A stretch of 64,000 nt of DNA from Candidatus Zhuqueibacterota bacterium. GTDB taxonomy: Bacteria; Zhuqueibacterota; Zhuqueibacteria; Residuimicrobiales; Residuimicrobiaceae. This document shows, one piece after another, positions 12,824 to 51,428 of the stretch. The DNA lies in the NCBI GenBank assembly GCA_963169875.1, contig CAUJEL010000197.1:12395-76394 (forward strand), given 5' to 3'. Position numbers and translations under genes: made by a program. Numbering within the stretch: position 1 is the stretch's first letter; the number at the start of each line of letters is the position of its first letter. The notes under the pieces were generated by a model, which saw nothing but the letters and a program-made list of their open reading frames with translations, did no database searches and was not told the origin of the DNA.

Positions 12824-15800
12824 TTATTTCAGCAGCAACATGCGCTTGATCTCTTTGAACGAACCAGCCTCCAGACAGTAGAAATAGAATCCGCTCGGCA
12901 GGGCGATCGCATCCCAGGTGGTCGTGTACTGCCCGGCCGCCTGACGTGTTTCAACCAGCCTGGCGATCTCCCGCCCCTGCACATCATAGACTGTAAGACG
13001 CACCTGCATCTCCTCCGGAATCTGGTACACAATGGCCGTGACGGGATTGAATGGATTCGGATAATTCTGCTGCAAAGAGACAGTCTGCGGCAGCGCTGTC
13101 TCCGGTTCCAGCGGTTCCTCCTCATCCAGTTCCTTGGTCGCCAGCGGCAGACGCGCCAGCGCCGTCACGCCGGATGGCCGGTTGCTCTCGATCCATTCCG
13201 GATCCGAATAATCTTCACCATTCGTTTTGCCCAGTTGACCGTTATTCCGAAACGGACTGAGATCGGTGAGCTCCTGGCCCTGACCTTCGTCGAAATCGTA
13301 ATAGGCAACCAGGCCCGGTTCGTAGGTTGTCAGACGGTTGAAAATCATCTGGTTTATTTCTGCTTCGGAGCGCGCGACATTCCACAAACTCAATTCATCC
13401 AGCAATCCTTCATAGTGATACTCATAGATGTTGCCGTGTTTGGCGGCGCCGATGAAAAGGTCCTTGAGCAGATCGCGCGGGGCTGCGGTGGCCGCGCGCA
13501 TGGATTCGAGGCGGCCGTTGAGATAGAGCCGGGTTTGAGCCCCATCAAAAGTCAAGGCCGCGTGCACCCAGGTGTTGACCGGAATGGCGGAGGCCGAGGG
13601 TCCCACGATGTTATTCATGCGCGAGCCGCCCGGAATCGCCGTCCGCAACGCAGCGCACATCCTGTCCGTCGCGCCATAAAAACTGACATAGTACTCGTCA
13701 AAGGCGCCCTTTTCCAGAATACGGCTCCATTTCTGGGCAGGATCGTCAGTCTTGAACCAGAATGCGATGGTAAATTTTCGCGTGATGTTGAGGCTGGCAT
13801 CGTGGGGCACCTGGACAAAATCGTCAATGCCGTCAAACGCCAGGGCAAAATTGGGCAGAGGCGCCACTTCCCTGATCATGATTTTGAAAACCGCATCGCT
13901 GGTGTCCGCCGGTGCAGCGCCTGCGGAGGCGGCGACGCGCACCAGTGCGGAATCGGTCGCCGTGTTCGGCAAGGTCCATGTGTACACGCCGGAATCAGGT
14001 TGCGCGTTCGCCAAGAGCAGCCAGGATTGACCGTTATCAAGGGAGTAGTGCAAATCCACGGTGCCGGTGAAGGCGCGGGAGCGCCACTGTACCTGATAAG
14101 TGTCGCCGGCAAACAGGGTGTCGCCGCCATTGGGCGTCATGACCCATAATTTCGGCGGCGGATTCACAAACTGGAACTTGCCCCACATCACATCCCACGG
14201 GCACGAATGGCGTCCCGCCTCACGGATGCGCAGGGTGGCCTTTTCCTGGCTCAGGAAGGGCACATCCCAGATGAACGAGCCATCGTCCGGCGTGCTGGGG
14301 GTGATCACCAGCGGAAAGGTCACGCCCAGATCGAAAGAGAGGTCGATGGCCACATTGGCGGCGATGCGCCAGGATTTCCAGAGAATTTCAAAAGGTTCGC
14401 CGCGCACCACATCCAGGGAATCGTGCGGGGCGATAATCTGCACCCAGTGATCCGGATTCATCCAGTGGTATTCCGCGGTGAGGTCGTTGGTCAGAACGAT
14501 GCGATCCAATCGCGTATAGTTTTCGCGGCTGCGAACGGTGATTTGATGGGCGCCGGCGGTCAGATTCAGGAGCACCATATCCGGTTCCGACAGACGTTGC
14601 CAGTACCAGACGCCATCGCCTTTGCGGATTTCCCAGAGGTGTTCATCGCCGCCATCGCAGGAGACCCAGAAGGAATTGCGCGTACCGCCCGGCGCCTGGG
14701 CGCGGCCCCAGAGCACATAGAGGCCGGGTTTGGCGACGGTCACATTGAATACCGCCTTGCCGCTGTTATTTTTGTCCGAATAGATGGCTTCGCAATCGAA
14801 GGACGTGCCGTTGATCCACTTGCGCATGGGCGCGGTCAGGGCCGCATCTTCGGCCTCCATTTGCAGCTGCGCCTGCCAATTGGCGCCGGATATCGTGATG
14901 GGACTGTCATTGACATCGAATTCGGCGGGCGTTGTGCTGTTGACAACCTTGAACAGTCCGTTGGTCGTAGACAGACCAGGGACGAATGTGGCGAACGATC
15001 CGGTATTGTTGATATTTTGCGCCAGAGGTATCCATTTCGTGCCGCCATCCGCTGAAAAGTAGAGATCGACTTTGAGGGCATTATTGCCCGGCAGCCAGGT
15101 GATGGTCAACGGGTCGGCGATGTTCAGGCTGCCGCCATTGGGAGACGCCAGTACCAGCACGGTTGGCGACAAAATCGCGACCTGATAATCCTCAACTTCC
15201 CCGTCTCCGGCAAAACCGGACGGGGTCAGATTTTGCTCTGTGGAGAGACGGAACCGTGCGAATGTGTTTACTTGAACAGCGCTGGACGGCACATTGAGCA
15301 AGAGGTTGTTACTGCCTGCTGTTACCGCGCGATTGATGACAACCTGTTCTGAGGCATCGTTCCAGTCGCCATCCACATTCCAATCGATCCAGGCATTCAG
15401 ATAGGCCTGGATCCCTGTGGTGTTCTCTACCGTAACTTCAATAACTGCCTGCAAACCCTTATATAGCAGGGGAAGGGTGACGCCCTCTTCATCGTCGGTG
15501 CCATCGGCATCATCTCCCTGCGCCATTGCATCGGGCATGCCATCCACATCATGATCGATCAGCGCACCCAGTTTGAGCCTGGCATCGATCAGGTGCCCCG
15601 CGCCATTGCTGGTCAGGAGCGTGGCATAGGTTGGATCGGGTGCGTCGCCCAAATCCCATTCCATGATGTACTGGTGCGACATGGTGTTGTTGGTCCCGTC
15701 GCATTCGCCAACTGCAAGATTCGGATCGATGGTGGCTGTGAAGTTACAGCTGGATGAGATTGGGGTAAAATTGAAGGTCACATCGGCCGCTGCGCCGGCT

Positions 15801-17635
15801 GCCAGGTCAATCGATTGTTCCGTGAATGTCAAACCACAATCCGAGATCAAACGGACGACGGTGCCCAGGACGCTGCCGCAGCCTGGATTGGCTGCACGGA
15901 CGCGCACGGATACCTGCCAGTTCCCCACAACCTGCGGGGTGATCGATTGGATGGTTAAATCCGGAATCTGCAAGGCTTTGTTGGAAACCAGGCTATTATT
16001 GGTTTCATTGGTTTCTGCGATTACATGGCTATAGTCCGCTTCGATATTGAATGAAACCCCACAGCCGGTGCTGTTGACGCAAAGATTGGTCGTCAGGGTT
16101 TGCTCTGTGATGGTGAAAAGCTGTGTGCCGCTTCCCGGCAGATTAACGCCGACGAAGGTTTGCGTCCATTGATCGATTATATTACCGCTCCCCCCGTTGT
16201 TATCATACAGCGTAAATCGCATCGGGACGTCCATATTGCACGTGGTGGTGCCGGTATTTGCCAGCGTCACGGTGCCGGTGATTTGCACTTGCCCGTCCGC
16301 TATGGGGGTTATGGTCAGCGTATTGGTTGAAACCGAGAGATCAATGGCGTTCAGGTTAACGTTATAATCTTCAACTTCGCCGTCCGGTGCCGCGCCGTTG
16401 TAGGGGAGATTTGCCGTCGAACCCAAGCGAAAGCGTGCGCAGGTGGAGCCGGGCGATGCGGTGGCAGGGACGGTGATGGTAAGATTATTTGCCCCTGCTG
16501 CCAGCGTCAGATTTGTGGCGATCTGTTCGCCGCTGTCGCTCCAGTCGCCATCGCGGTTCCAGTCGATCCACGCATGCAGATAAGGTGTTGCGACGCCCGC
16601 TGTATTGGTGAGCGATATGGAGAGGGTGGCGGGTTGGCCGGGCGTCAAGTCGGGGATGGTGACGCCGTCTTCGTCATCGCCGGCGGTATCGTCGCCAGTG
16701 GCGTTGGCATTCGGTTGGCCATCATTTTCGGAATCGATGGATGCGCCCAGAGAAAAGCCGGTCAGGATAGTATGTATCGCGCCATTACTGGCCAACAGCG
16801 TGGGAAAGGTGGGATCAGGCGCATCGCCCAGATCATAGGCCACGAGATTGTTGGCCAGGGTCCAGCGCGAAAAAGCGTTGATACTTGCCAGAGCCACGTT
16901 GTTATCTGACGGGTTCGGGGTGCCGCCTTCACTGCTCCAGGAGGCGCCGGCGTTTGTCGAGCGGTACAGCTTAAGGGACGGTTCGAGTTGTCCGTTCAGT
17001 TCGCTTTCATCGTAATGAAAAATCAATGCAGCGTTGAGGCCGCTGTTCTGCGTCGGCGAGATATCAAAATAACGGGTGATGCCGCTGCTGCCGCTGCCGC
17101 TTTGCGCGGCGTGACCGCGGCGGATTTCGGTGACGCCGAGATCCGCGGCTGTGGTCAGTTCAGCGCCGAGTCCGCCAACATCGAGTCCGCTGGGGGCGTT
17201 GAGCGTGCGCGTTGTGGTGAGATAGCCGGAACTTCCTTTGACGGTGTTGCCCGCGGTTTCGCTCAGGGTGGCGGTCGTGCTCAGCGTGATGATGTTGCCG
17301 TTGAGGTCCACATCGCCCGTGGTCACAGTGAAGAGATTGTTCACCGTGAAGCTGTTGTGCAGCAGCAGATTGCCGGCGCTCTTGTTCAGCGTCAGATTAT
17401 TGAAGGAGACCCCGGTGCCGTCGTGGATGTTTTGATCTCCGCTTGCGCCATTGAAGACAACAGTACCGGTTTGGGCGTTGAAGGTGCCGCTGTTGTTCCA
17501 GTCGCCCGGCAGGCTGAGCGTGGCGCCACCCAGGGAAAATGTCGCGCCGCTACTGATGGTGAGGCCGGCGGCGTGCAGGTAAGAGGCTGCACAAATCAGA
17601 AGTACTGTTATTGCTTTGAAAGCAGGGCTTTTCAT
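12824..17635 (-). CDS. Giant T9SS-secreted surface/adhesin-like protein (GEVED x2, CARDB-like, LamG-like, T9SS C-terminal sorting domain)
   Basis: Signal peptide and an autotransporter-passenger-like N-terminal repeat region. There are two internally duplicated ~170-aa modules each ending in DGEVEDY (a GEVED domain). A LamG/concanavalin-like block (FKTDD...LTFDGAQTRLYLNGRLES) follows. The C-terminus carries the Por_Secre_tail signature NYPNPFNPVTAIVYQI. Confidence 0.75.
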   Translation of the reverse strand: MKSPAFKAITVLLICAASYLHAAGLTISSGATFSLGGATLSLPGDWNNSGTFNAQTGTVVFNGASGDQNIHDGTGVSFNNLTLNKSAGNLLLHNSFTVNNLFTVTTGDVDLNGNIITLSTTATLSETAGNTVKGSSGYLTTTRTLNAPSGLDVGGLGAELTTAADLGVTEIRRGHAAQSGSGSSGITRYFDISPTQNSGLNAALIFHYDESELNGQLEPSLKLYRSTNAGASWSSEGGTPNPSDNNVALASINAFSRWTLANNLVAYDLGDAPDPTFPTLLASNGAIHTILTGFSLGASIDSENDGQPNANATGDDTAGDDEDGVTIPDLTPGQPATLSISLTNTAGVATPYLHAWIDWNRDGDWSDSGEQIATNLTLAAGANNLTITVPATASPGSTCARFRLGSTANLPYNGAAPDGEVEDYNVNLNAIDLSVSTNTLTITPIADGQVQITGTVTLANTGTTTCNMDVPMRFTLYDNNGGSGNIIDQWTQTFVGVNLPGSGTQLFTITEQTLTTNLCVNSTGCGVSFNIEADYSHVIAETNETNNSLVSNKALQIPDLTIQSITPQVVGNWQVSVRVRAANPGCGSVLGTVVRLISDCGLTFTEQSIDLAAGAAADVTFNFTPISSSCNFTATIDPNLAVGECDGTNNTMSHQYIMEWDLGDAPDPTYATLLTSNGAGHLIDARLKLGALIDHDVDGMPDAMAQGDDADGTDDEEGVTLPLLYKGLQAVIEVTVENTTGIQAYLNAWIDWNVDGDWNDASEQVVINRAVTAGSNNLLLNVPSSAVQVNTFARFRLSTEQNLTPSGFAGDGEVEDYQVAILSPTVLVLASPNGGSLNIADPLTITWLPGNNALKVDLYFSADGGTKWIPLAQNINNTGSFATFVPGLSTTNGLFKVVNSTTPAEFDVNDSPITISGANWQAQLQMEAEDAALTAPMRKWINGTSFDCEAIYSDKNNSGKAVFNVTVAKPGLYVLWGRAQAPGGTRNSFWVSCDGGDEHLWEIRKGDGVWYWQRLSEPDMVLLNLTAGAHQITVRSRENYTRLDRIVLTNDLTAEYHWMNPDHWVQIIAPHDSLDVVRGEPFEILWKSWRIAANVAIDLSFDLGVTFPLVITPSTPDDGSFIWDVPFLSQEKATLRIREAGRHSCPWDVMWGKFQFVNPPPKLWVMTPNGGDTLFAGDTYQVQWRSRAFTGTVDLHYSLDNGQSWLLLANAQPDSGVYTWTLPNTATDSALVRVAASAGAAPADTSDAVFKIMIREVAPLPNFALAFDGIDDFVQVPHDASLNITRKFTIAFWFKTDDPAQKWSRILEKGAFDEYYVSFYGATDRMCAALRTAIPGGSRMNNIVGPSASAIPVNTWVHAALTFDGAQTRLYLNGRLESMRAATAAPRDLLKDLFIGAAKHGNIYEYHYEGLLDELSLWNVARSEAEINQMIFNRLTTYEPGLVAYYDFDEGQGQELTDLSPFRNNGQLGKTNGEDYSDPEWIESNRPSGVTALARLPLATKELDEEEPLEPETALPQTVSLQQNYPNPFNPVTAIVYQIPEEMQVRLTVYDVQGREIARLVETRQAAGQYTTTWDAIALPSGFYFYCLEAGSFKEIKRMLLLK

Positions 17636-26401: not shown

Positions 26402-27766
26402 ATGATGCAATCGATTAATCCTGCAACCGGACAGCTGCTGCGCACCTGGCCGGTCATGAATTCAGGACAAGTGGAATCCATTATCACCGCTGCGGCCCCG
26501 GCGCAGCAGACGTGGGCGAGAAGCGAATTCAGCGAACGCGCGAAAATATTGCGCGAGGCAGCCACACGGCTGCGCCAGCGCGCGCCGGAATACGCCCGGC
26601 TCATGGCGCAAGAGATGGGCAAGCCGGTGCGCCAGGGAGCCTCTGAAATGGAAAAATGCGCCTGGGTGTGCGACTATTATGCCGAACACGGTGCGGCATT
26701 TCTGCAATCTGAAATGGTGGCCAGCGACGCCCGCGAGAGCTATATCTGTTTCAATCCGCTTGGCGTCATCCTCGCCGTGATGCCGTGGAATTTTCCTTTC
26801 TGGCAGGTATTCCGTTTTGCGGCGCCCGCACTCATGGCGGGCAACGGCGCGCTCCTCAAACACGCCTCCAACGTCAGCGGCTGCGCCCTGGCCATTGAAG
26901 AGATATTTCATCAGGCCGGCATTCCCCGCGACCTTTTTCGCACTTTGCTGGTTGGCAGCGATGCGGTGGAATCCGTCATCGCGCACCCCGGGGTTGCGGC
27001 TGTGAGCCTGACAGGAAGCACGGCGGCCGGCCAGGCGGTTGCGGCCGCGGCTGGACGCCATCTGAAAAAATGCGTGCTCGAGCTGGGCGGTTCTGATCCC
27101 TACGTCGTACTCGAAGACGCGGACGTGGAAAAAGCCGCATCCATCTGCGTGCAGGGACGCATGATCAATACGGGACAGAGCTGCATCGCCGCGAAGCGTT
27201 TTATTGTGGTGGATGCGGTCCGGCAGCCGTTCGAATCCAAAGTGCTTGAGCTGATGTGGCGCTACAAGCCCGGCAATCCCCTGGAGGAGAACGCGGAGAT
27301 CGGGCCTCTGGCGCGGCTGGATTTGCGCGATGAACTGCATCAGCAGGTTATGCGCAGCGTCGAAAAGGGCGCGCGGCTGTTACTGGGCGGCGAGATCCCG
27401 CCCGGCCCCGGCGCCTTTTATCCGCCGACGCTGCTGACCGATGTGAAACCGGGCATGCCCGCCTACGAAGAGGAGATTTTCGGACCGGTGGCGGTGATCA
27501 TCCCGGTGCCGGATGAAACGTCCGCCCTCAAAGTGGCCAATGACACGCCCTTCGGCCTCGGTGCGGCGATTTTCACACGGGATATGGAAAAAGGTAAACG
27601 CCTGGCGGAAGTAGAAATCGCGGCGGGCAGCTGTTTTGTCAATGCCTTTGTCCGCTCTGATCCGCGCCTGCCCTTCGGCGGCATCAAACAGAGCGGCTAT
27701 GGCCGCGAATTGTCGGTTTTCGGCATCCGCGAATTTGTCAATATCAAGACCGTTTATGTGGGATGA
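26402..27766 (+). CDS. NAD(P)+-dependent aldehyde dehydrogenase (succinate-semialdehyde dehydrogenase-like)
   Basis: ALDH superfamily signatures are present: the FNTGQSCIAAKRF catalytic Cys region, LELGGSDP (Glu) and the NPATGQLL start. Confidence 0.8.
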   Translation: MMQSINPATGQLLRTWPVMNSGQVESIITAAAPAQQTWARSEFSERAKILREAATRLRQRAPEYARLMAQEMGKPVRQGASEMEKCAWVCDYYAEHGAAFLQSEMVASDARESYICFNPLGVILAVMPWNFPFWQVFRFAAPALMAGNGALLKHASNVSGCALAIEEIFHQAGIPRDLFRTLLVGSDAVESVIAHPGVAAVSLTGSTAAGQAVAAAAGRHLKKCVLELGGSDPYVVLEDADVEKAASICVQGRMINTGQSCIAAKRFIVVDAVRQPFESKVLELMWRYKPGNPLEENAEIGPLARLDLRDELHQQVMRSVEKGARLLLGGEIPPGPGAFYPPTLLTDVKPGMPAYEEEIFGPVAVIIPVPDETSALKVANDTPFGLGAAIFTRDMEKGKRLAEVEIAAGSCFVNAFVRSDPRLPFGGIKQSGYGRELSVFGIREFVNIKTVYVG

Positions 27767-27812
27767 AGGAATTGCCTGCGTATCTGTGAAAAGTGCTGGT
27801 TTCCCATTGTTT

Positions 27813-27990
27813 GTAGTTCCGCCTTCAGGCGGCGTTTTTGCCGGCTAAAGCCGGAACTACGAACGTTTGCTATTGCTGAATCATCGGGGAATTGAACCCA
27901 GTGTACAGTCCCCGCCTTCAGGCGGCGTTTTTGCCGGCTAAAGCCGGAACTACGAACATTTGCTATTGCTGAATCATCGGGGAATTGAAC
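27813..27990 (+). repeat. Two near-identical tandem copies (79 bp, period 93) of a double-hairpin palindromic element (REP/MITE-like; the first hairpin is terminator-like)
   Basis: The unit ccgccttcaggcggcgtttttgccggctaaagccggaactacgaac(g/a)tttgctattgctgaatcatcggggaattgaac occurs at 27819-27897 and 27912-27990 with one mismatch. It contains the hairpins ccgcc-ttca-ggcgg (followed by cgttttt) and ccggc-taaa-gccgg, flanked by inverted gtagttcc/ggaactac. Confidence 0.8.
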
Positions 27991-28099
27991 ATTATTCACG
28001 GTACCCGCCGGAGAGATGCCACATCCTGGCACGGCTATCGGGTGCGGCTGACTGTGCCCGTCTTTATGCAGGTCACGCCATGAACAGAATATCCAACCC

Positions 28100-29227
28100 T
28101 TGAGGATCCTTTTGTCAACCAACTCAGGTCATCTATACGATCCTCTCAGCGCCGCGGCCTATCCGCTCGACGCGCCGCGCTGGCGCAGCGACAGCGGCGG
28201 CCTGCTGTCGCTGGCCTGGAATGGTTCCTGGGGTCCCGATGTGGTGAAGTCCAGGACAGCGACCTTGTGGCGCTACCGCGAAGCTCTGCCCCTCGCGAAC
28301 GACGCGAATATCATTTCCATGGGCGAGGGATTTACCCCGCTGCTTGCTACATCGCGTCAGAATCGAAAAGTCTGGATCAAGCAGGAGCAGCTTTTTCCGA
28401 CCGGCTCCTACAAAGACCGTGGCGCTTCCGTGTTGATCAGCAAGGCGAAGGAACTGGGCATCCGTCAGGTGGTCCAGGATTCATCGGGCAATGCCGGCTG
28501 CGCCATAGCCGCCTACTGCGCCCGCGCCGGCATCGCCTGCGATATCTACGTCCCAGAGAAAACATCGCCCGCCAAACTGGCGCAGATTCGCAGCTACGGC
28601 GCGCGCCTCGTCCTCGTCCCCGGCACCCGGGAGCAAACCGCCCTGGCGGCTCTCGAAGCCGCCCGGAACACCTATTATGCCAGTCACTGCTGGAACCCGT
28701 TTTTTCTCCACGGCACTAAAACCTTCGCCTATGAGATCTGGGAGCAGTTGGGCGGGAAAGCGCCGCATGCGCTGGTTCTGCCGGTGGGAAACGGAACCTT
28801 GCTGCTGGGCGCTTTTATCGGATTTACTGATCTTTTGCAATGGGGGTATGTGGACAGATTGCCCAGGTTGATTGGCGTTCAGTCCGCCAACTGCGCGCCG
28901 CTGGCGCAGGCTTTCGCCCGCGAGGTGGAGGCCCCCTGGCCGATCGAAAAGCAGGACACTATCGCGGAAGGCATCGCCATCGCTGAGCCCGTCCGCGGCC
29001 GCGAAATACTGCAGGCCGTGGCCAGCAGCGGCGGCCATTTCATCACGGTTTCTGAAGAAGAGATAGCTACGGTCTGGCGGGAGTTGGCTCTGCAGGGTTT
29101 TTATGTCGAGCCCACGGCCGCGGCCGGCATTGCCGGCCTGGATCGTTACTTGAACAAAACGCCTGAATCAGAAATTATCGTCTCGGCCTTCACCGGCCAT
29201 GGACTCAAATCCCCGACCGGGCATTAG
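28100..29227 (+). CDS. Threonine-synthase-like PLP-dependent enzyme (tryptophan-synthase beta fold)
   Basis: LWRYREALPL...GEGFTPLL start and FPTGSYKDRGASV (PLP lysine) motif, plus a Gly-rich SSGNAG loop. The length fits a short-form ThrC. Confidence 0.6.
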   Translation: MRILLSTNSGHLYDPLSAAAYPLDAPRWRSDSGGLLSLAWNGSWGPDVVKSRTATLWRYREALPLANDANIISMGEGFTPLLATSRQNRKVWIKQEQLFPTGSYKDRGASVLISKAKELGIRQVVQDSSGNAGCAIAAYCARAGIACDIYVPEKTSPAKLAQIRSYGARLVLVPGTREQTALAALEAARNTYYASHCWNPFFLHGTKTFAYEIWEQLGGKAPHALVLPVGNGTLLLGAFIGFTDLLQWGYVDRLPRLIGVQSANCAPLAQAFAREVEAPWPIEKQDTIAEGIAIAEPVRGREILQAVASSGGHFITVSEEEIATVWRELALQGFYVEPTAAAGIAGLDRYLNKTPESEIIVSAFTGHGLKSPTGH

Positions 29228-38486: not shown

Positions 38487-38700
38487 GATTCCTCTTTTCC
38501 CGTTTTGGTATAACTCTTGCATAACCACATCACAGTGTAATATATAAAAATAATAAAAACAATCAATAAAAAAGATGGCAGGCAAAAAAGTGTGGCATAA
38601 AATGGTCATTGTGAAATAATAAATCAAAGAAAACGATGACTATGGGTGTGTCATGCCACATTATGATCAACGGGGCTGTGTGTGGGAAGGCGGAAAAACC

Positions 38701-41700
38701 ATGAATGTATCAGGTAAATTTATTCTTATTGGGGCAGGTTTATTGGTCGTGCTCGTCTGTTTCCCTGTCAGTGAGGCACAGGCGGCGTATTTGCGTGATG
38801 TACCCGTTGCGTTTCGCCAACCTGACGGGACGGTACTATCCTGTTATGTGAGTGGGGACGAGTTTTTCAATTGGGCGCATGACCGGGATGGCTATCCCAT
38901 CATGCGGGATCCATCAAGCGGATTTTACGTCTATGCGACCGTGGTGGATGGCGTACCGGTCCCGACACATCTTCGGGTTGGCGAGGCTGTTCCTGCGCGG
39001 GCCAGCCTGAACAAGGATTTTAAAATGGCCCCGCAAAGATGGGAAGAGATGCGGCAGCAATTTATCAGCAAGCCGCGCGCCTTTTTTCCCCCGGAGCGGC
39101 AGCTGGCTCCGAAAACGGGTGTATTGCAGAACATAGTCATTTTCATCCGTTTCAGCGACGAGGCGGAATTTACCACGCCCATCTCGGTCTACGAGACCTC
39201 GTTCAACAGTGATATCCCCGGTGTAAATTCACTGCGGAATTACTTTCAGGAAGTCTCTTACAATCGGCTGCTGGTGCAATCCTATTTTTATCCACTCCCG
39301 GGTGTCAATGTGGTCTCTTTTCAGGACAGCCACCCACGCGGCTATTTCATGCCCATCGCGCTCGATCCCCTGGGGTATTCTGACAGCGCGGAGCGCGATC
39401 AGCGCGAACAGACGCTGATCCGGGATGCCCTTCTCGCTGTAAAGGCGCAAATCCCTGGCGATCTCGATCTGGATGGCGATGACGACGGCCAGGTCGATAA
39501 TATGGTCTTTATCATCTCCGGAACGCCGACGGCCTGGAATACCCTGTTGTGGCCGCATGCCTGGTCCCTTTACATGTATACCGTCTATCTAAATGGTGCC
39601 CAGGTCGTGCCGTACAATTTTCAGATTCAATCCTTTCTCAGCAATGGCAGCACCCATGTCCTGGCGCATGAAATGCTGCACAGCGTCGGGTTTCCCGATC
39701 TCTATCATTACGCCAGCGATGGCCTCAGTCCGGTGGGCGCGTGGGACATCATGGCCAGTCCGACTGCTCCACCGCAACATCCAGGCGCCTATACCAAGTG
39801 GCGTTACGGCGGCTGGATTGATGCCATACCGGAAATCGCCGCCAATGGCGGCTATGCGCTCAACCCGTTGACATCCCCGCTGGGTAACTGTTATAAAATA
39901 TTGAGCCCGGAAGATCCCGGCGGCGCGCAATTTTATGTGGTCGAGTACCGCAAAAAACAAACCGGAACATTCGATGCCACTGTGCCCGGTGAAGGGATGC
40001 TGGTCTACCGCATCGATCGCCGCAATCCCGGCATTCAGGGGAGCACAGCCATCCCCGAGGAGGTTTACATTTACCGTCCCGGTGGAACGCTGAGCACCAA
40101 CGGCTCCTTGTCCACGGCCCATTTCAGTCAAGGCAGCGGACGGAACCTCATCAATAATGGCACGGACCCGGTTCCCTGGCTGGCGGATGGCACGCCCGGG
40201 GGCTTGAATCTTTTCAATATTGGCGAAGCCGCGGAGACGATCTCTTTCACGGCTGGATTGACTGCGCCGCAGGCACCGGTTCTGGTGGCCCCGGCTGATC
40301 ATGCTCTGGACGCGCCTCTCTCTGTGCTGCTGACATGGGATGCATCCGCGGGCGCCGAGAGCTATGATATACAGGTGTCCACTGATCCGGATTTTAACAA
40401 TCTCATCATGGACAAGGCCGACAATGTTTTGAATTTCTGGCCGGTCAACAGCCTGGTGCGGAGCACGACCTATTACTGGCGCGTGCGCGGCCAGAATTAC
40501 CAGGGTGAAGGGGTCTGGTCGCCCTATTTTCAATTCACGACCCTGCCGGATCTGCCTGCGGCCATTCGATTGTCCAGCCCTGAAAACGGCTGGGTAGATG
40601 TCACCCTGAATCCCGTTCTGGTCTGGCAAAATGACCAGCTGGCAACGAGCTACCATTTGCAGCTCTCGTTGACATCCGATTTTGATCCGGTTGTACACAA
40701 TTTTACAAATTTACCCGCAACTGAACAGTCCGTGTCCGGGCTGAACAGCGGCAGCACCTGGTACTGGCGCGTTGCCGGACACAACGGAGCTGGGGATGGT
40801 CCCTGGTCCGACGTCTGGTCCTTCACCACCATTCAGAGTCCCGCTAATGCACCTGTGCTCTCCTGGCCGCTGGATGGCGCCTTGGGCGAAACAGTCAATC
40901 CGGCGCTGAGTTGGGCAGGTGTCAACGGTGCGTCGGCGTATGAAGTGGCGTTGGATGTCTCGGCCGATTTTCCGGCGCCGGTTTTTCACACCTCGAGTGC
41001 CACGGGAGCGGGGGTGACCGCATCGAACCTGGAAAATATGACGACCTATTTCTGGCATGTGCGCGGCTTGAATGAAGCGGGGCCCGGCCCCTGGTCCTCC
41101 ATTCGTTCTTTCACCACCCAGGAATTGCCGGTTGAATTGGTATCCTTTACCGCCACCGCCCACTTCCAGGGCATTCACCTCGAGTGGGTGACGGCCTCGG
41201 AAACGGAAAACTACGGCTTCGATGTGGAGCGTAAAGCGGCAAATTCGGGTGCGGGTGAAAGTGCATGGAGCAAAATCAATTTTGTCGAAGGCCATCACTC
41301 CACCAGCGTAGAACACACCTATCAGTATCTGGATCAGGATGTCACGGTGGGCGATTATGCGTATCGACTGAAGCAGATCGATCTCGACGGCCATTATGCC
41401 TATTTGCCGGAACAGCAGGTCAGCTGGGCGCAACCACTGCAGTGGAAGCTGGATCAGAATTACCCGAATCCGTTCAACGCCACAACGGTGATCACCTATC
41501 AACTGCAGCAGCCCGGCCCGGTGCAGTTGGCAATTATCAATGCCATGGGACAGACCGTGCGTTCGCTGGTGCAGAATTTTGCTGCTGCCGGGGAGCATGT
41601 GGTGCGCTGGGATGGATGCGATGACCACGGTCTGCCAGTGGCGGGCGGGATTTATTATTATACGCTGCGTTGCGCGGAGTTTCAGGAGACCAGGGCGATG

Positions 41701-41715
41701 ACGCTGCTGAAGTGA
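38701..41715 (+). CDS. T9SS-secreted zinc metalloprotease (M6/immune-inhibitor-A-like HExxH domain) with three tandem FN3/Ig-like repeats and a T9SS C-terminal sorting domain
   Basis: Signal peptide; HEMLHSVGFPDLYHY (HExxH...GxPDLY as in M6). Three ~95-aa repeats each end in ...T(Y/W)(Y/F)WRV(R/A)G.N..G.G.WS. A VELVSFTA...LEWVTASETENYGFDVER domain follows, then NYPNPFNATTVITYQL (Por_Secre_tail). Confidence 0.6.
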   Translation: MNVSGKFILIGAGLLVVLVCFPVSEAQAAYLRDVPVAFRQPDGTVLSCYVSGDEFFNWAHDRDGYPIMRDPSSGFYVYATVVDGVPVPTHLRVGEAVPARASLNKDFKMAPQRWEEMRQQFISKPRAFFPPERQLAPKTGVLQNIVIFIRFSDEAEFTTPISVYETSFNSDIPGVNSLRNYFQEVSYNRLLVQSYFYPLPGVNVVSFQDSHPRGYFMPIALDPLGYSDSAERDQREQTLIRDALLAVKAQIPGDLDLDGDDDGQVDNMVFIISGTPTAWNTLLWPHAWSLYMYTVYLNGAQVVPYNFQIQSFLSNGSTHVLAHEMLHSVGFPDLYHYASDGLSPVGAWDIMASPTAPPQHPGAYTKWRYGGWIDAIPEIAANGGYALNPLTSPLGNCYKILSPEDPGGAQFYVVEYRKKQTGTFDATVPGEGMLVYRIDRRNPGIQGSTAIPEEVYIYRPGGTLSTNGSLSTAHFSQGSGRNLINNGTDPVPWLADGTPGGLNLFNIGEAAETISFTAGLTAPQAPVLVAPADHALDAPLSVLLTWDASAGAESYDIQVSTDPDFNNLIMDKADNVLNFWPVNSLVRSTTYYWRVRGQNYQGEGVWSPYFQFTTLPDLPAAIRLSSPENGWVDVTLNPVLVWQNDQLATSYHLQLSLTSDFDPVVHNFTNLPATEQSVSGLNSGSTWYWRVAGHNGAGDGPWSDVWSFTTIQSPANAPVLSWPLDGALGETVNPALSWAGVNGASAYEVALDVSADFPAPVFHTSSATGAGVTASNLENMTTYFWHVRGLNEAGPGPWSSIRSFTTQELPVELVSFTATAHFQGIHLEWVTASETENYGFDVERKAANSGAGESAWSKINFVEGHHSTSVEHTYQYLDQDVTVGDYAYRLKQIDLDGHYAYLPEQQVSWAQPLQWKLDQNYPNPFNATTVITYQLQQPGPVQLAIINAMGQTVRSLVQNFAAAGEHVVRWDGCDDHGLPVAGGIYYYTLRCAEFQETRAMTLLK

Positions 41716-42212: not shown

Positions 42213-42623
42213 TTGCTTTTCGAATTCAGCATGGTATTCATGTTCCTGGCACTCGGCGCCGCTTTCGTCCTGATCGCTCTGGGTTTAGGGGCATTGATCC
42301 GGCCGCGGCGCATGGGGGGCGTGCGCAACGAAACCTACGAATGCGGCGAGGAACCCATTGGTCAGGGTTGGTATAACTTTAATCCGCGCTTTTACATGTT
42401 GGCCCTGGTCTTTCTCATTTTTGACGTGGAACTGGTCGTCACGTTTCCGGTGATCACCGTCATGCGTCAATGGGTGGAACAAGGCCGCGGCTGGATGGCT
42501 TTGATCGAAGTTGTTTTATTCCTCGCCATTCTTGTGGCCGGTTTTGCATTCCTGTGGAATCGCGGTGATCTGGAATGGATCAAAAAATTGGAAGGACCCG
42601 AAGAGGGAGGAAGTCGCACATGA
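42213..42623 (+). CDS. nuoA: NADH-quinone oxidoreductase subunit A
   Basis: Three-TM NuoA/ND3 with YECGEEP and FDVE motifs. Apparent TTG start with an upstream GGAGGT. Confidence 0.85.
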   Translation: MLFEFSMVFMFLALGAAFVLIALGLGALIRPRRMGGVRNETYECGEEPIGQGWYNFNPRFYMLALVFLIFDVELVVTFPVITVMRQWVEQGRGWMALIEVVLFLAILVAGFAFLWNRGDLEWIKKLEGPEEGGSRT

Positions 42624-43126
42624 ATGAAATCGTATGGGAAGGCGGCATGGCCGTTCCCACCAAACTGGATGATCTGATCAACTGGCCGCGCAAGAATTCG
42701 CTGTGGTATCTGCTCTTCGCCACGGCCTGCTGCGGCATCGAGCTGATGCAGACCGGAGGACCGCGCACCGACCTGGACCGCTTCGGCATGGTTTTCCGCG
42801 CCACGCCCCGGCAGGCCGATCTGTTGCTGATCGCCGGTTCCATCACCTACAAAATGGCGGAAGCTGTGCGCAGACTCTACGATCAGATGCCGGAACCGAA
42901 ATATGTGCTGGCCATGGGCTCCTGTGCCAATTGTGGCGGACTCTTTCAACGCGGTTATTCGGTGATCAAGGGCGTCGATAAAATTATTCCGGTTGATGTC
43001 TATTTGCCGGGTTGTGCGCCGCGACCGGAAGCGCTGAATGAAGCCCTTATGACCATCCAGAAACGCATGGAAAAAGACCACTGGGCGCAACGCATGAAGA
43101 TCGATTCGGAGAAATTAGCCCGATGA
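42620..43126 (+). CDS. nuoB: NADH-quinone oxidoreductase subunit B
   Basis: CCGIE...MGSCANCGG...GCAPRP N2 cluster ligands. Start overlaps the nuoA stop (ATGA). Confidence 0.9.
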   Translation: MNEIVWEGGMAVPTKLDDLINWPRKNSLWYLLFATACCGIELMQTGGPRTDLDRFGMVFRATPRQADLLLIAGSITYKMAEAVRRLYDQMPEPKYVLAMGSCANCGGLFQRGYSVIKGVDKIIPVDVYLPGCAPRPEALNEALMTIQKRMEKDHWAQRMKIDSEKLAR

Positions 43127-43674
43127 CAACCAACGACATTTTATCAGCTTGTCAGCGTCAATTCCCCAAACTGGCGCTGGAAGTACAGCAGGGCGATGCC
43201 GGCGACCCCTGGATGCTCATCCCGGCCGGCCAGGCTGCGGAGGTGATCCGGTTTTTAAAGGATGATTTGGCGTTTAATTATCTCGCTTGCCTCTCCGGTG
43301 CTGATTTTGGCGAATACCTCGGGGTCATCTACCAGCTTCGCAATCTCGACAATAAAGACGAAATCATGGTCAAAACGCTGACGCCGCGTCAGGAACCCCG
43401 GGTCCCAACGCTTGCGCATCTCTATGGCAATGCCAACTGGTTTGAACGCGAAGTCTATGATCTGCTCGGCATCGATTTCACCGGTTCGCCGGACCAGCGC
43501 CGCATCATGATGCCGGACGATTGGATCGGCCATCCCCTGCGCAAGGATTTTCAGGAAGCAGCGGATTACCGCGGCTTTCCGACAACCCGGCCCGATACGC
43601 ACCGGATTTTGGATCAGACCATGCCCCCCAAGCCGGTCACGGAACCGGCTGCAGGCTCAGAACCAACTGAATAA
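43123..43674 (+). CDS. nuoC: NADH-quinone oxidoreductase subunit C (30 kDa)
   Basis: NuoC family blocks (LRNLDNKDEIMVKT..., ANWFEREVYDLLGI). Overlaps the nuoB stop. Confidence 0.85.
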   Translation: MTTNDILSACQRQFPKLALEVQQGDAGDPWMLIPAGQAAEVIRFLKDDLAFNYLACLSGADFGEYLGVIYQLRNLDNKDEIMVKTLTPRQEPRVPTLAHLYGNANWFEREVYDLLGIDFTGSPDQRRIMMPDDWIGHPLRKDFQEAADYRGFPTTRPDTHRILDQTMPPKPVTEPAAGSEPTE

Positions 43675-43678
43675 AGGA

Positions 43679-44821
43679 ATGGCAATTATGAGCAGAATGG
43701 CGGTCGAGACGCTCGATAATGAGTCCACCATCGTCAACATGGGGCCGCAGCACCCCTCCACCCATGGCGTCATCAATCTCAGGCTCCAGCTCAAAGGCGA
43801 AGTCATTGAAGCCGTGGATCCCAATGTCGGCTTTTTGCATCGCAGCATCGAAAAAATCGCCGAACTCACCCAGTACACGGGATTTATCCCCTATACCGAC
43901 CGTATCGATTACCTGGGCGCGATGTTCGGCAATATGGGATATTGCATGGCGGTGGAGAAGCTGCTGGGCGTGGAAGTCCCCCGTCGCGCGCAATATATGC
44001 GCGTCATCGCCTGCGAATTGAACCGCATCATCAACCATCTCATCGCCTGCGGCACCATGTCCATGGACCTCGGCGCTTTCACGCCGTTCCTCCATGGCAT
44101 ACGCGAGCGCGAAAAAGTCAATGATATGATGGAAAAAATCTGCGGTGCACGGCTGAATTACAACTATATGCGCTTCGGCGGTGTCTCTCTGGATTACATG
44201 CCGGGTCTCGACAAGGAAATTCTCGCATTTCTCGACCGTTTTGAACGGTTCCTTCCCGAATTCAACCGTCTGATCACCGGCAATGAAATATTTGTCCAGC
44301 GCTTGTTGCACGTGGGCGTCATTCCCAAAGAAACCGCCATTCATTACGGCCTGGGCGGCCCAAACCTGCGCGCCTCCGGCGTCGACTTTGATGTCCGCCG
44401 GGATTATCCCTACAGCGTCTATCCGGAATTCTCATTTGATGTCGTGACCGGTGGTCACTATCCGGGTGAATGCGGTGACTCTTATGCCCGTTACATGGTG
44501 CGCATCGATGAGATGCGCCAGTCGGCGCGTCTGGTGCGCCAGGCTGTCGAAGGACTGCCCGAAGGCGAATATCTCGCCAAGGTGGCGCGCAATCCTGTGC
44601 CGCCCAAGGGTGAAGTCTACAGCAAAGTGGAAAGCGTACGCGGCGAGATGGGGTTTTATCTCGTCAGCGATGGCACCGACAAGCCCTACCGTCTCAAAGT
44701 GCGCACCAGCTCCTTCTGCGCCATGTCGGTCATGCCGGAAATCGGCCCGGGTCTCATGGTCGCCGATATGACAGCCTTTTTCGGCAGCCTGGATGTGGTG
44801 GCGCCGGAAGTGGATAGATAA
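43679..44821 (+). CDS. nuoD: NADH-quinone oxidoreductase subunit D (49 kDa)
   Basis: NuoD/NiFe-hydrogenase large-subunit-like blocks (MGPQHPSTHGV, RIDYLGAM, LKVRTSSF). It is a separate gene, not fused to nuoC. Confidence 0.9.
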   Translation: MAIMSRMAVETLDNESTIVNMGPQHPSTHGVINLRLQLKGEVIEAVDPNVGFLHRSIEKIAELTQYTGFIPYTDRIDYLGAMFGNMGYCMAVEKLLGVEVPRRAQYMRVIACELNRIINHLIACGTMSMDLGAFTPFLHGIREREKVNDMMEKICGARLNYNYMRFGGVSLDYMPGLDKEILAFLDRFERFLPEFNRLITGNEIFVQRLLHVGVIPKETAIHYGLGGPNLRASGVDFDVRRDYPYSVYPEFSFDVVTGGHYPGECGDSYARYMVRIDEMRQSARLVRQAVEGLPEGEYLAKVARNPVPPKGEVYSKVESVRGEMGFYLVSDGTDKPYRLKVRTSSFCAMSVMPEIGPGLMVADMTAFFGSLDVVAPEVDR

Positions 44822-44825
44822 TGAG

Positions 44826-45048
44826 CCGCCTGAAGGCGGAACTACGAACCATGGCCAGTTAATATTTTGAAAAGCAAGTGTTTGTAGTACCGGCTTCAGC
44901 CGGAAAGAACCCGCCTGAAGGCGGAACTACGAACCGTGGCCAGTTAAGATTTTGGAAAGCAAATGTTCGTAGTACCGGCTTCAGCTGGAAAGAACCCGCC
45001 TGAAGGCGGAACTACGAACTGATGCCGCCTGAAGGCGGAACAACGAAT
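44826..45048 (+). repeat. About 2.5-copy 85-bp tandem array of the same double-hairpin palindromic element family, in the opposite orientation to the 27.8-kb copies, inserted between nuoD and nuoH
   Basis: ccgcctgaaggcggaactacgaac recurs at 44826, 44911, 44996 and (degenerate) 45026. The spacers between copies are themselves about 90% identical (c(a/g)tggccagttaa(t/g)attttg(a/g)aaagcaa(g/a)tgtt(t/c)gtagtaccggcttcagc(c/t)ggaaagaac). It is therefore a tandem repeat, not a CRISPR array. Confidence 0.8.
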
Positions 45049-45063
45049 AAACGAGTGGATGGT

Positions 45064-46296
45064 ATGAAATATCTCTTCGACTCCCTGACCGCCAACTGGA
45101 ACCTGTCGCCCTGGATGACCACCCTGGCGCTTGTGCTGTGGGTAGTGGTGATCACCGCGGGCGTGCTGGTTTTCATGGCGACCTTCGCCGGTTTCACCTC
45201 CTGGGTTGAACGCCGCATCGCCGGACGCATGCAATCGCGCATCGGCCCGAACCGCGTCGGACCATTCGGCGGCCTGCAATGGCTCGCGGACGGCCTGAAG
45301 TGCTTCCTCAAAGAGGATGTCATCCCCAAGGCCACAGATCCGGTGCTGTTCCGCCTGGCGCCCTATCTCGTCTTCCCCGGCGGTTTTGCGGCTTTCGCCG
45401 CCCTGCCGTTTGGCTACGGCATTGCCGCCTCCAACATCGATATTGGCATTTTTTACATCACCGCCATCACCTCCCTGGTGGTCATCGGCATTCTCATGGC
45501 GGGTTGGTCAAGCAACAACAAATGGTCGCTGATCGGCGGCGTGCGCAGCGCCGCGCAAATCATCTCCTATGAAATTCCCGGCGGCCTGGCCATTCTCACC
45601 GTCGTGGTGCTCGCCGGCACGCTGAATATGCATGAACTGGTCGTGGCCCAGGGCGGCTGGCCGTGGCACTGGTTCATCTTTCGCAATCCCTTCACCTTTG
45701 TCGCTTTTTTCATCTTTTTCGCCTCCATCCTCGCGGAGGGCAACCGCACGCCTTTCGATTTGCCGGAAGCGGAAAGCGAACTGGTGGCCGGTTATCTGAC
45801 CGAGTATACCGGCATGCGCTTTCTGTTTTTCCTCTTCACGGAATGGGCCAACGTCTGGGTTATCTCGGCGCTGCTGACAACGCTGTTCCTGGGCGGCTGG
45901 CAGATTCCCGGCATCACCGATCTGGGTGCCACCATCGCAGCGGCGACCAGCCTGGGGAAATGGTTCTGGGTGCTGCTCAGCGTTGCGATGTTTTTCATCA
46001 AGACCTCCGCACTCGTTTTCCTGGTCATTCAGATTCGCTGGACCCTGCCGCGGCTGCGCGTCGATCAACTGATGATCATGTGCTGGAAGTATCTGGTGCC
46101 CATGGGTTTTGTGACGCTGCTGGGCTCCGCGATTTTCCTGGTGCTGCCGCGCGAAGGCGCCTGGGCGTGGTTTCATCTCTCCGTGCAGGGCATCATGACA
46201 CTCATCGGATTTGCCATTGTCGCGGGTTTGATAGGACGGGCCTGGTATAACATTCATGCCCTGAAAGATCGCATCTCTTTGGAAAATTGGTTATAA
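45064..46296 (+). CDS. nuoH: NADH-quinone oxidoreductase subunit H
   Basis: NuoH/ND1 motifs ([37 protein letters not shown]). Start moved to the ATG at 45064 (MKYLFDS). The ORF-track 5' extension only reads through the repeat array. Confidence 0.85.
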   Translation: [410 protein letters not shown]

Positions 46297-46311
46297 ACTG
46301 GACGGAAAAAC

Positions 46312-46911
46312 ATGCTGAAGCAATATTTCAAAAATATCAAAAATGCCTCCACATCGATTTTCGAGGGATTGGCGGTGACGCTCTCCTACATGGTGCGCAA
46401 GCCCATCACCATCCAGTATCCGGACCGGATTGAAAAGCCGCTGCCGGAGATGCTGCCGCCCACGTTTCGCGGCATCCTCGAGGTCGACACCGGCATCTGC
46501 ACCGTGTGCATGGCTTGCATGAAACGGTGTCCGCTGGATACGATCTATATCGAGAGCGAACGCGATCCGGAGACCCGCAAGAACTATCTGACGCGGTTCG
46601 ATATTGATGTGGCGCGCTGCATGGTGTGCGGGCTGTGCACAGAAGTGTGTCCGACCGGCGCCATTCGTCACAGCACCGAGTTTGATGCGGTCACCTCGGA
46701 CGTCATCAATCTGGTGATGCGCTATGTCCAGCCTGGCGACAAGATACCCGCTTACAAGGTTTCAAAAGAAGAGGAACCGCCGGGCGTGCCGCAGAACGAA
46801 CCCTATTGCCGTTTGAAAAAACAATGGGATGCTCCTGCACCGTTACAACCCGATGAAGTGCGTGGAGCGGTGCGCTGGAAAAAACAGACATCCAAACAGG
46901 AGGGGCGATGA
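46312..46911 (+). CDS. nuoI: NADH-quinone oxidoreductase subunit I (2x[4Fe-4S] ferredoxin-type)
   Basis: CTVCMACMKRCP and CMVCGLCTEVCP cluster motifs. Confidence 0.9.
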   Translation: MLKQYFKNIKNASTSIFEGLAVTLSYMVRKPITIQYPDRIEKPLPEMLPPTFRGILEVDTGICTVCMACMKRCPLDTIYIESERDPETRKNYLTRFDIDVARCMVCGLCTEVCPTGAIRHSTEFDAVTSDVINLVMRYVQPGDKIPAYKVSKEEEPPGVPQNEPYCRLKKQWDAPAPLQPDEVRGAVRWKKQTSKQEGR

Positions 46912-47432
46912 ACATCACATTCCCGGATATCGTTTTTGTCATCCTCGCTGCGCTCATCCTGGGGTGCGGCGCCATCGTTGCCTATTCGCGGAACATCGTC
47001 CGTGCCGGTTTTTCGCTGCTGGGCGCTTTTGCCGGCGTGGCCGGTCTCTATTTTCTCGCACAGGCCAATTTTATCGGCGCCGCCCAGATTTTAATCTATG
47101 TCGGCGGCGTTCTGGTGGTGATCCTCTTTGCCATCATGCTGACGCGCGGCATCGCGCAAGCCCATTCCACCAATCCACGGCAAATGGTGATACCGGCGAC
47201 CCTGATGGGTCTGATTTCGGCCGCGATGCTGATCACCATCGCGCTTTATTTCCCTTGGCGCTTGCGGCCGGATGCACCCGTTGCGACTGTCCATTCGCTG
47301 GGAAATGCCCTGCTCGATACTTACCTGATCCCGTTCGAATTTCTGTCGCTCCTGCTGCTGGCCGCCATGATCGGCGCGGTGATGCTGGTGCGCAAAGAGA
47401 TCAAGGAGAGCGGAAAGGAGGAATCGCGATGA
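46908..47432 (+). CDS. nuoJ: NADH-quinone oxidoreductase subunit J
   Basis: NuoJ/ND6-type hydrophobic protein of 174 aa. Overlaps the nuoI stop. Confidence 0.8.
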   Translation: MNITFPDIVFVILAALILGCGAIVAYSRNIVRAGFSLLGAFAGVAGLYFLAQANFIGAAQILIYVGGVLVVILFAIMLTRGIAQAHSTNPRQMVIPATLMGLISAAMLITIALYFPWRLRPDAPVATVHSLGNALLDTYLIPFEFLSLLLLAAMIGAVMLVRKEIKESGKEESR

Positions 47433-47743
47433 CGCTGACCCTTGGATTGCCGCATTTTCTGGTGGTGGCTGCACTGCTATTTTCGCTTGGATTGGTTTGC
47501 ATTCTCTCCCGCCGCAACGCCATCGGCTTGCTGCTGGGCATCGAACTGATGTTGAACGCCGCCAATATCAACCTGATTGCTTTTGCGCGGTTCGTCGAGA
47601 GCGATCTCTCCGGCCATGTATTCGCCCTGTTCGTCATGGTCCTGGCCGCGGCGGAGGCCGCCATCGCCATGGCCATCGTCCTGGCCATCTTTCGATCCAT
47701 GAAGCATATTGACGTCAACTTGACGGTTAACCTGAAGGAGTAG
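47429..47743 (+). CDS. nuoK: NADH-quinone oxidoreductase subunit K
   Basis: 104-aa NuoK/ND4L (MTLTLGLPHFLVVAALLFSLGLVCILSRRNAIGLLLGIELMLNAANINL...). The start was defined within the longer ORF-track frame and overlaps the nuoJ stop. Confidence 0.8.
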   Translation: MTLTLGLPHFLVVAALLFSLGLVCILSRRNAIGLLLGIELMLNAANINLIAFARFVESDLSGHVFALFVMVLAAAEAAIAMAIVLAIFRSMKHIDVNLTVNLKE

Positions 47744-47748
47744 CCCTG

Positions 47749-49881: not shown

Positions 49882-49894
49882 TGGAGCTCTCCTT

Positions 49895-51415: not shown

Positions 51416-51428
51416 GGAGAACGTTACC

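Follow-up and report, generated by a model that had tools for sequence, protein, structure and literature searches.

Putative GTAG-tagged REP sequences form a small, locally duplicated cluster downstream of an aldehyde dehydrogenase gene in a Candidatus Zhuqueibacterota bacterium

Introduction

GTAG-tagged REPs and their HH dimers carry an unpaired GTAG tag beside a short GC stem-loop (Di Nocera, De Gregorio and Rocco, 2013, PMC3733652; Nunvar et al., 2010), and the same build is seen in the repeats described here, which lie downstream of an aldehyde dehydrogenase (ALDH) gene of an uncultured bacterium. Tag and stem are separated by a dinucleotide, as in the GTAG-1/2 types (PMC3733652). In both, moreover, the stems vary in a complementary way, dimers (heterodimers among them) have their heads outward, clusters consist of dimers that were reiterated along with flanking DNA, and copies are located after genes and between co-directional genes; both also occur in the PVC superphylum (PMC3733652). 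In contrast to the described GTAG REPs (PMC3733652), the present family has a motif, GTTYGTAGTW-CCGSC-TTYA-GSCGG, that was not found in the searchable literature, a stem of 5 bp only, and a longer conserved head, GTTYGTAGT. In the survey of Di Nocera and colleagues, only CGTC-type repeats were reported for the FCB group (PMC3733652), to which the present host belongs.

REPIN-RAYT systems (Bertels and Rainey, 2011, PMC3116915; Bertels et al., 2017, PMC5581495) share with this family the inverted REPs in a hairpin-capable doublet and the lack of target-site duplication. They also share an HUH/Y1 RAYT gene bracketed by the same REPs, which for the present family is found in the genomes of other organisms. 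However, the REPINs of Pseudomonas and Escherichia have a lineage-specific REP and a doublet spacer conserved within each genome (PMC3116915, PMC5581495), whereas the family described here extends over at least 10 phyla with free spacers of 7–64 nt. The BIMEs of Escherichia coli consist of REPs in alternating orientation, separated by linkers and reiterated in tandem (Ton-Hoang et al., 2012; Messing et al., 2012; Quentin et al., 2018, PMC6006769), and this arrangement is seen at both loci of the present genome, with a period of 93 at the ALDH locus and of 85 at a locus between nuoD and nuoH. E. coli REP stems are longer and bulged, in contrast to the 5-bp stem found here.

The REPtron, a RAYT flanked by REPs, is common to the TnpA_REP system (PMC6006769) and to the RAYT clade found in this study. 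That clade is similar to subclass 2.8 (PMC6006769) in the HYH variant of the HUH motif, the Pro-rich N-terminus and a length near 199 aa, and differs in its Y motif, YIHNNP rather than YIHYNP, so that an assignment to subclass 2.8 is by resemblance only. Subclass 2.8 has relatives in unrelated phyla, and REPtrons are patchily distributed across phyla (Quentin et al., 2018, PMC6006769).

Materials and methods

The DNA analysed, hereafter the window, is a stretch of 64,000 nt from Candidatus Zhuqueibacterota bacterium (GCA_963169875.1, contig CAUJEL010000197.1, positions 12,395–76,394 of the forward strand). The REP as single-stranded DNA reads GTTCGTAGTTCCGCCTTCAGGCGG and, as a search pattern, GTTYGTAGTWCCGSCNNNNGSCGG; the family scan used the 23-nt pattern TTYGTAGTWCCGSCTTNAGSCGG on one genome per species. 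The stem search pattern admitted all four base combinations. Statistics on 184 REPs and 41 doublets were drawn from the at least 119 listed loci. RAYT genes were located by local phmmer, with IS200 and E. coli RAYT sequences as bait, and verified with Pfam and NCBIfam.

Results

Host and gene neighbourhood

The closest named protein to the NuoD of the window is from Candidatus Zhuqueibacterota (74%), and large secreted proteins encoded at 12824–17635 (−) and 38653–41715 (+) carry T9SS C-terminal sorting domains; together these point to an uncultured FCB-group bacterium as the host. The ALDH product (P0001) has a match of 100% identity, and its gene ends with a stop codon at 27766, ahead of the repeat array and of a co-directional gene for a PLP-dependent enzyme (PALP). 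The nuo operon (42575–52910) is of the 11-subunit type, nuoA-B-C-D followed by H-I-J-K-L-M-N; nuoE/F/G are absent from it, and the same layout is present in two relatives (L141 and L142). Neither Rfam families at gathering score nor tRNA genes were matched in the window. Coordinates are collected in Table 1.

Table 1. Positions of the repeats in the two arrays and of the adjoining genes.
Feature	Position	Strand	Evidence
Aldehyde (succinate-semialdehyde type) dehydrogenase gene (ALDH)	26402–27766	+	Pfam Aldedh E=1e-133; 454-aa product
REP-a1: head GTTTGTAGTT and hairpin CCGCC-TTCA-GGCGG	27809–27832	+	sequence, motif search
79-nt block copy 1: REP-a stem to linker end ...GGGGAATTGAAC	27819–27897	+	repeat comparison, Tandem Repeats Finder
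Doublet 1 spacer CGTTTTTG, source of the terminator-like T-run	27833–27840	+	sequence; terminator-like scan (stem 27819–27832 and tail)
REP-b1: CCGGC-TAAA-GCCGG-AACTACGAAC on the + strand; minus strand GTTCGTAGTTCCGGCTTTAGCCGG	27841–27864	−	sequence, motif search
79-nt block copy 2: headless REP-a hairpin 27912–27925, spacer 27926–27933, REP-b2 27934–27957 (minus strand), linker	27912–27990	+	repeat comparison, Tandem Repeats Finder
9-bp terminator-like hairpin, tail TCTTTATG, outside the REP family	28039–28060	+	terminator scan; −13.3 kcal/mol
PLP-dependent enzyme gene (threonine-synthase-like), downstream, co-directional with ALDH	28100–29227	+	Pfam PALP E=4e-77
nuoD, upstream neighbour of the second array	43679–44821	+	Pfam Complex1_49kDa
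REP (a type), first of the nuoD–nuoH array	44826–44849	−	motif search
nuo doublet: REP-b (+, 44880–44903), spacer AAAGAAC, REP-a (−, 44911–44934)	44880–44934	+	reverse complement of the ALDH-locus doublet
Second nuo doublet; REP-b stem with one mismatch, GCTGG	44965–45019	+	motif search, Tandem Repeats Finder
Degenerate REP-a singlet, head GTTGTT	45025–45048	−	motif search
nuoH	45064–46296	+	Pfam NADHdh; start by comparison with L141 and L142

The array downstream of the ALDH gene

The basic unit is a 24-nt REP, in which an unpaired head, GTTYGTAGTW, is followed by CCGSC-TTYA-GSCGG, i.e., a 5-bp GC stem with a 4-nt loop. REPs pair with their heads outward into REPIN-like doublets, and the doublets are reiterated along with linker DNA in a BIME-like manner at both loci. 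In this genome the doublet is a heterodimer that combines a CCGCC stem with a CCGGC stem; one strand of its spacer is T-rich. At the ALDH locus, REP-a1 and REP-b1 form such a head-outward heterodimer (27809–27864). As DNA, the hairpin of REP-a1 has a predicted energy of −5.3 kcal/mol, and for the whole doublet a single long hairpin of −20 kcal/mol (z = −6.5) is predicted.

The original prediction of two 79-bp copies with one mismatch and a period of 93 is borne out by the repeat comparison and by Tandem Repeats Finder (27819–27990: period 93, 1.8 copies, 98% matches, score 337), the one mismatch being G27865 against A27958. Their start had been placed about 50 bp after the ALDH stop, which agrees with the distances of 43–47 nt for the element and 52 nt for the duplicated block, and each copy does have CCGCC-TTCA-GGCGG followed by CGTTTTTG, together with CCGGC-TAAA-GCCGG. 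The arms GTAGTTCC and GGAACTAC, said to enclose each copy, flank copy 1 only (27813–27820 and 27853–27860). Because the initial C of the CCGCC stem is where the duplicated block opens, copy 2 has GTACAGTCC in front of it instead of the GTAGTT head and, without a left arm, folds into two small hairpins only. The periodic bases number 172, whereas a clean 93-bp tandem duplication would give 186. The edges of the block are sharp, with 1/79 differences inside and 8/14 immediately after it, which is not what a plain tandem duplication predicts. Between the 14-nt stretches at the two junctions, and beyond 27990 where a decayed third unit was looked for, similarity was at chance (6/14).

The hairpin at 28039–28060 is located just upstream of the PALP gene and is a better conventional terminator candidate than the REP hairpins. 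Two other identities for the array were rejected: its ends depart from the RYYYAAC/GTTRRRY of an integron attC site and no cassettes adjoin it, and it lacks the regular spacing of a CRISPR.

The array between nuoD and nuoH

The nuoD–nuoH spacer contains six units of the REP motif in the order − + − + − − (44826–45048), with a tandem period of 85 and 94% matches in Tandem Repeats Finder. The core of the ALDH-locus element had been taken for the reverse complement of the nuo-locus units, and this is confirmed by the alignment with 44826–45048: when reverse-complemented, the nuo units align with those of the ALDH locus over both hairpins, the spacer and the first ~10 nt of the linker. The a/b heterodimer layout is common to the three doublets of the window, whose spacers are related (CGTTTTTG and GTTCTTT on the same strand). 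Each of these doublets (27809–27864, 44880–44934 and 44965–45019) is predicted to fold as a hairpin of −18 to −20 kcal/mol with z about −6; for 44880–44934 the values are −18.6 kcal/mol and z = −6.25.

When a 20-nt motif was searched with at most 3 mismatches, the window gave 11 matches; the expectation from shuffled sequence was 0.21, and none of 100 shuffles gave as many as 11. The window contains nine REPs with a head and one headless REP, all of them in the two intergenic spacers, in line with the proposed dispersed palindromic family of at least six intergenic copies. GTAG is present in nine of these ten units. Two partial matches to the head, at 17225 and 36366, fall within coding sequence without a hairpin and were dismissed as chance. 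The start of nuoH given by the ORF finder (ATG 45022) falls within a REP; by comparison with L141 and L142, the true start is likely the ATG at 45064.

Distribution and conservation of the REP family

The REP pattern was detected in at least 119 loci of named genomes belonging to at least 10 phyla. Assigned by record title, the listed matches within the Planctomycetota include Pirellulales, Gemmataceae, Tepidisphaerales and Kuenenia. Others are from Verrucomicrobiota, Lentisphaerota, Kiritimatiellota (including the isolate Pontiella sulfatireligans F21), Acidobacteriota, Desulfobacterota and Myxococcota, and further ones from Hydrogenedentota, Methylococcaceae, Heliomicrobium and Clostridia MAGs, and Candidatus Vecturithrix. 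Several of the REP-bearing contigs are 0.5–8 Mb long, so contamination of bins cannot account for the cross-phylum breadth. Among the matches listed, REP density reaches up to 9 per 8 kb, with more than 10 loci per MAG. A literature search for the literal REP sequence returned unrelated primers only.

At the two variable stem positions, 156 of the 184 REPs have CCGCC/GGCGG, 27 have CCGGC/GCCGG and one has a non-pairing combination. The stem is thus paired in 183/184 REPs, which represents compensatory change, and the G-T-T-Y ahead of GTAG is 95–98% conserved in the same set. Judging from these two patterns, the REP hairpin is under selection. Many of the listed matches are plus/minus pairs 7–64 nt apart, and the spacers of the 41 head-outward doublets, likewise 7–64 nt long, have no conserved sequence; REPs were also found as singlets and in head-to-tail runs. 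Target-site duplication, suggested earlier as a check at the element ends, was found in 0/41 doublets at the GTAG boundary and at chance level at the GTTYG boundary, as expected for the REP class.

In twelve of the 41 doublets in other genomes, complementarity extends 4–13 bases further than the conserved GTTYG...CRAAC ends, and the added bases differ from copy to copy (e.g., L042:3000–3090, L024:3120–3210, L058:4775–4860, and nine other doublets). The chance expectation for at least 4 such bases is about 0.4%. This extended complementarity suggests either insertion into pre-existing hairpins or that doublets were born by fold-back copying of a singlet together with its flank.

All-versus-all clustering of 3,700 ORFs from the at least 119 listed REP loci revealed no recurrent neighbour gene; REPs occur in both orientations relative to their neighbours, which are unrelated to one another. 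A metagenome scan for the a/b heterodimer of the window yielded nine contigs of 52–68% GC, which had nothing in common with the window beyond the element and no RAYT. In addition, the REP motif is present in 22 stretches of 17 IMG/VR contigs classed as viral (L145–L166), and no RAYT is encoded on these stretches. These contigs may represent proviral or host-derived regions.

REP-associated transposases in other genomes

A Y1_Tnp ORF was detected at the end of L060, 185 nt from a REP, with a Pfam Y1_Tnp score of 27.2 bits (cut-off 23). It has 974 homologues at E≤1e-10, nearly all of 197–199 aa. One protein of this group, P0129, scored 89.5 bits on the NCBIfam model NF047646, "REP-associated tyrosine transposase" (cut-off 80). 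The contigs of five homologues were inspected, and in every case REPs with outward heads bracket the gene. A Y1 gene of ~197 aa bracketed by the REP of the window or a close variant occurs at six independent loci in other organisms. Exactly the window REP, with heads outward, brackets the gene in L121/122, L123/124, L138 and L140; in L121/122 and L123/124, REP doublets are located directly before the start codon and after the stop codon. The bracketing repeats of L139 and L125–128 are variants with a different stem and the same GTTYGTAGT head. In eight RAYT sequences, NHYH (the HUH motif) and YIHNNPVKH (with the catalytic Y) are invariant, and the N-terminus is Pro-rich.

The search for a RAYT/TnpA_REP gene recommended in the original prediction was thus productive in other genomes, where Y1 genes passing NF047646 are bracketed by the same REP. 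Its remark that no transposase was in sight holds for the 64-kb window, where tblastn found no RAYT. Residues 1–33 of one RAYT homologue, P0121, containing ...FVVPPLGG..., correspond to translated REP, the gene call beginning in the upstream REP. An IS200-like gene of L073 was not counted as related, as 3.8 kb separate it from the REP.

Orthologous spacers in relatives

In three relatives whose NuoD is 81–83% identical to that of the window, the nuoD–nuoH spacers are 55, 71 and 165 nt long, and neither the REP nor its GTTYGTAG head was found in the sequences available (L141 and L142 over 21 kb each, and L144, a 3-kb contig). The only close ALDH relative, L001 (93% identical), is syntenic, with an ALDH–PALP spacer unrelated to that of the window; homology to the window is picked up again at ~28085, near the PALP gene. 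The REP family of the window is absent from L001. The REP-free spacers of the relatives indicate that both arrays are lineage-specific insertions.

The ALDH–PALP spacer of L001 carries two direct copies of a different GTAG-headed palindrome (L001:3745–3800; on the reverse strand GTAGGGCGGGCGCCAGCCC and GTAGGGTGGACACCAGCCC), pointing to a second REP-like family at the orthologous site. The nuoD–nuoH spacer of L142 has two copies of the palindrome CACCCCGGGGTG (L142:11135–11205), an unrelated small repeat at the same operon position.

Discussion

The feature at the ALDH locus is best explained as a small cluster of REPs of the GTAG-tagged superfamily, a class copied by RAYTs, that was locally duplicated once (probability roughly 0.8). 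Counted against this explanation are the absence of a RAYT from the window, the restriction to two loci within it, and a 5-bp stem, near the lower limit of stem length in described REPs. The sequence family is new; its kind is well known, and the known picture of REPs is unchanged.

The original prediction regarded the palindromes as a terminator cassette, and the pair could in that case be primarily a duplicated Rho-independent terminator of the ALDH gene, with palindromes that exist to end transcription. The shape itself is present. As in intrinsic terminators, a GC hairpin followed by a T-run is located on the ALDH sense strand after the stop codon at two sites, 27819–27842 and 27912–27935, i.e., 52 and 145 nt past the stop, where the terminator scan reports CCGCCTTCAGGCGG and CGTTTTTGCC twice. 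Five hairpin-plus-T sites occur in 1 kb against 1.3 expected, and the whole doublet as RNA has a predicted energy of −36 kcal/mol and is followed by GUUUGCUAUUG. A terminator as the primary identity is nevertheless unlikely, since the stem has only 5 bp (−8.2 kcal/mol as RNA), two bases stand between it and the five-T run, and the T-run belongs to the variable spacer of the doublet and is not kept in the family: at least five T in the 8 nt after the hairpin are found in just 10/184 REPs elsewhere, and the nuo array, inside an 11-gene operon, has AAAGAAC and no T-run after the hairpin on the sense strand. (A form of the spacer CGTTTTTG with the T-run altered is CGACGACG.) What is conserved is the GTAG head, which has no bearing on termination, and the conservation is equal on both strands; in addition, a stronger conventional hairpin with a T-tail is available at 28039–28060. 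Termination would be at most a by-product of the ALDH-locus copy. The near-identity of the two copies had further been taken as a sign of active mobilisation, that is, of an active transposase having inserted a 79-nt mobile unit twice, separately and recently. Such insertions would fit the single mismatch in 79 nt, the sharp edges on both sides, and the unrelated 14 nt after each copy (6/14), which are more like an inserted block than a simple tandem duplication. However, the 79-nt block does not match the unit conserved across genomes, which runs from head to head (27809–27864). It begins inside the element and drags along a 33-nt non-REP linker that was not found beside REPs elsewhere, and its second copy lacks the GTAG head required by RAYT-type enzymes; target-site duplications are absent too, although none are expected of REPs. 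The copies are also adjacent, the nuo array is locally reiterated in the same way, and no other copy of the block was found in the window or in the metagenome scan. All of this makes separate insertion very unlikely.

Two further explanations concern the element as such. Its 24-nt perfect inverted ends, length of 55–100 bp, intergenic sites and many copies are reminiscent of a MITE with terminal inverted repeats moved by a DDE transposase; yet no boundary examined in the 41 doublets has a target-site duplication, REPs are found as singlets and in head-to-tail runs as well, the repeats bracket a gene for an HUH/Y1 enzyme and not for a DDE transposase, and the compensatory changes keep the small hairpin within each arm rather than the pairing between arms, so that a MITE is extremely improbable. 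Hardly any more credible is a host function that has nothing to do with mobile DNA, whether as a structured regulatory RNA or as a protein-operator palindrome. Strong predicted folds (z = −3.8 to −6.5) and a sequence conserved across phyla could be expected of either, whereas the lack of an Rfam family at gathering score, the occurrence in both orientations beside unrelated genes with no recurrent neighbour family in the at least 119 listed loci, the absence from the orthologous spacers of relatives, and the bracketing of a transposase-family gene all speak against it.

Under the preferred explanation of a REP cluster, a single strand of the doublet, whether DNA or RNA, could form one long hairpin. 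If it acts like E. coli TnpA_REP and IS200/IS605 TnpA, a RAYT would recognise the hairpin and the GTAG head on single-stranded DNA, and would cut and rejoin it, seeding REPs in intergenic DNA with no target-site duplication. The arrays after the ALDH gene and between nuoD and nuoH probably arose by seeding of this RAYT type, since the related genomes have REP-free spacers at these positions. The two 79-nt copies would stem from a later local copying event, by slippage or template switching at the hairpin, rather than from new transposition. We infer this because the block has its start at the base of the stem, takes in linker outside the REPs and yields a headless copy 2, and because it is not the cross-genome unit and adjoins its source, the nuo array being locally reiterated likewise.

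In E. coli, REPs and BIMEs are reported to protect upstream mRNA from 3' exonucleases and to attenuate transcription. By analogy, a passive effect of this sort is plausible for the ALDH-locus REPs. On the ALDH transcript, the structures would probably act as a 3' stem-loop barrier, and the chance CGTTTTTG spacer would probably make this copy a weak terminator, as a side effect and not as the purpose of the family.

For annotation, two odd intergenic arrays can now be explained as REP clusters, the terminator look is traced to the spacer of one copy, and the ORF start of nuoH is flagged as lying in a REP. The by-product of most interest is the cross-phylum constancy of the REP: the 24 nt are almost unchanged over at least 10 bacterial phyla, while the transposase has diverged to 55–90% identity. 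It is possible, though doubtful, that the REP-RAYT pair is a horizontally travelling "REPtron" and a recent invader of this FCB-group lineage, landing even inside the nuo operon. Horizontal spread of RAYTs is already allowed for in the literature (PMC6006769), and the constancy of the REP across phyla is for this reason moderately, not highly, surprising. If the pair does travel in this way, it would be a counter-example to lineage-specific, vertically inherited REPIN-RAYT partners, and would offer a natural series for studying what fixes the REP sequence. The REP family and its RAYT clade have an unusually wide distribution, including PVC, Acidobacteriota, Desulfobacterota and now an FCB-group genome, and this bears on the argument as to whether RAYTs and REPINs are vertically inherited symbionts or horizontally spreading elements.
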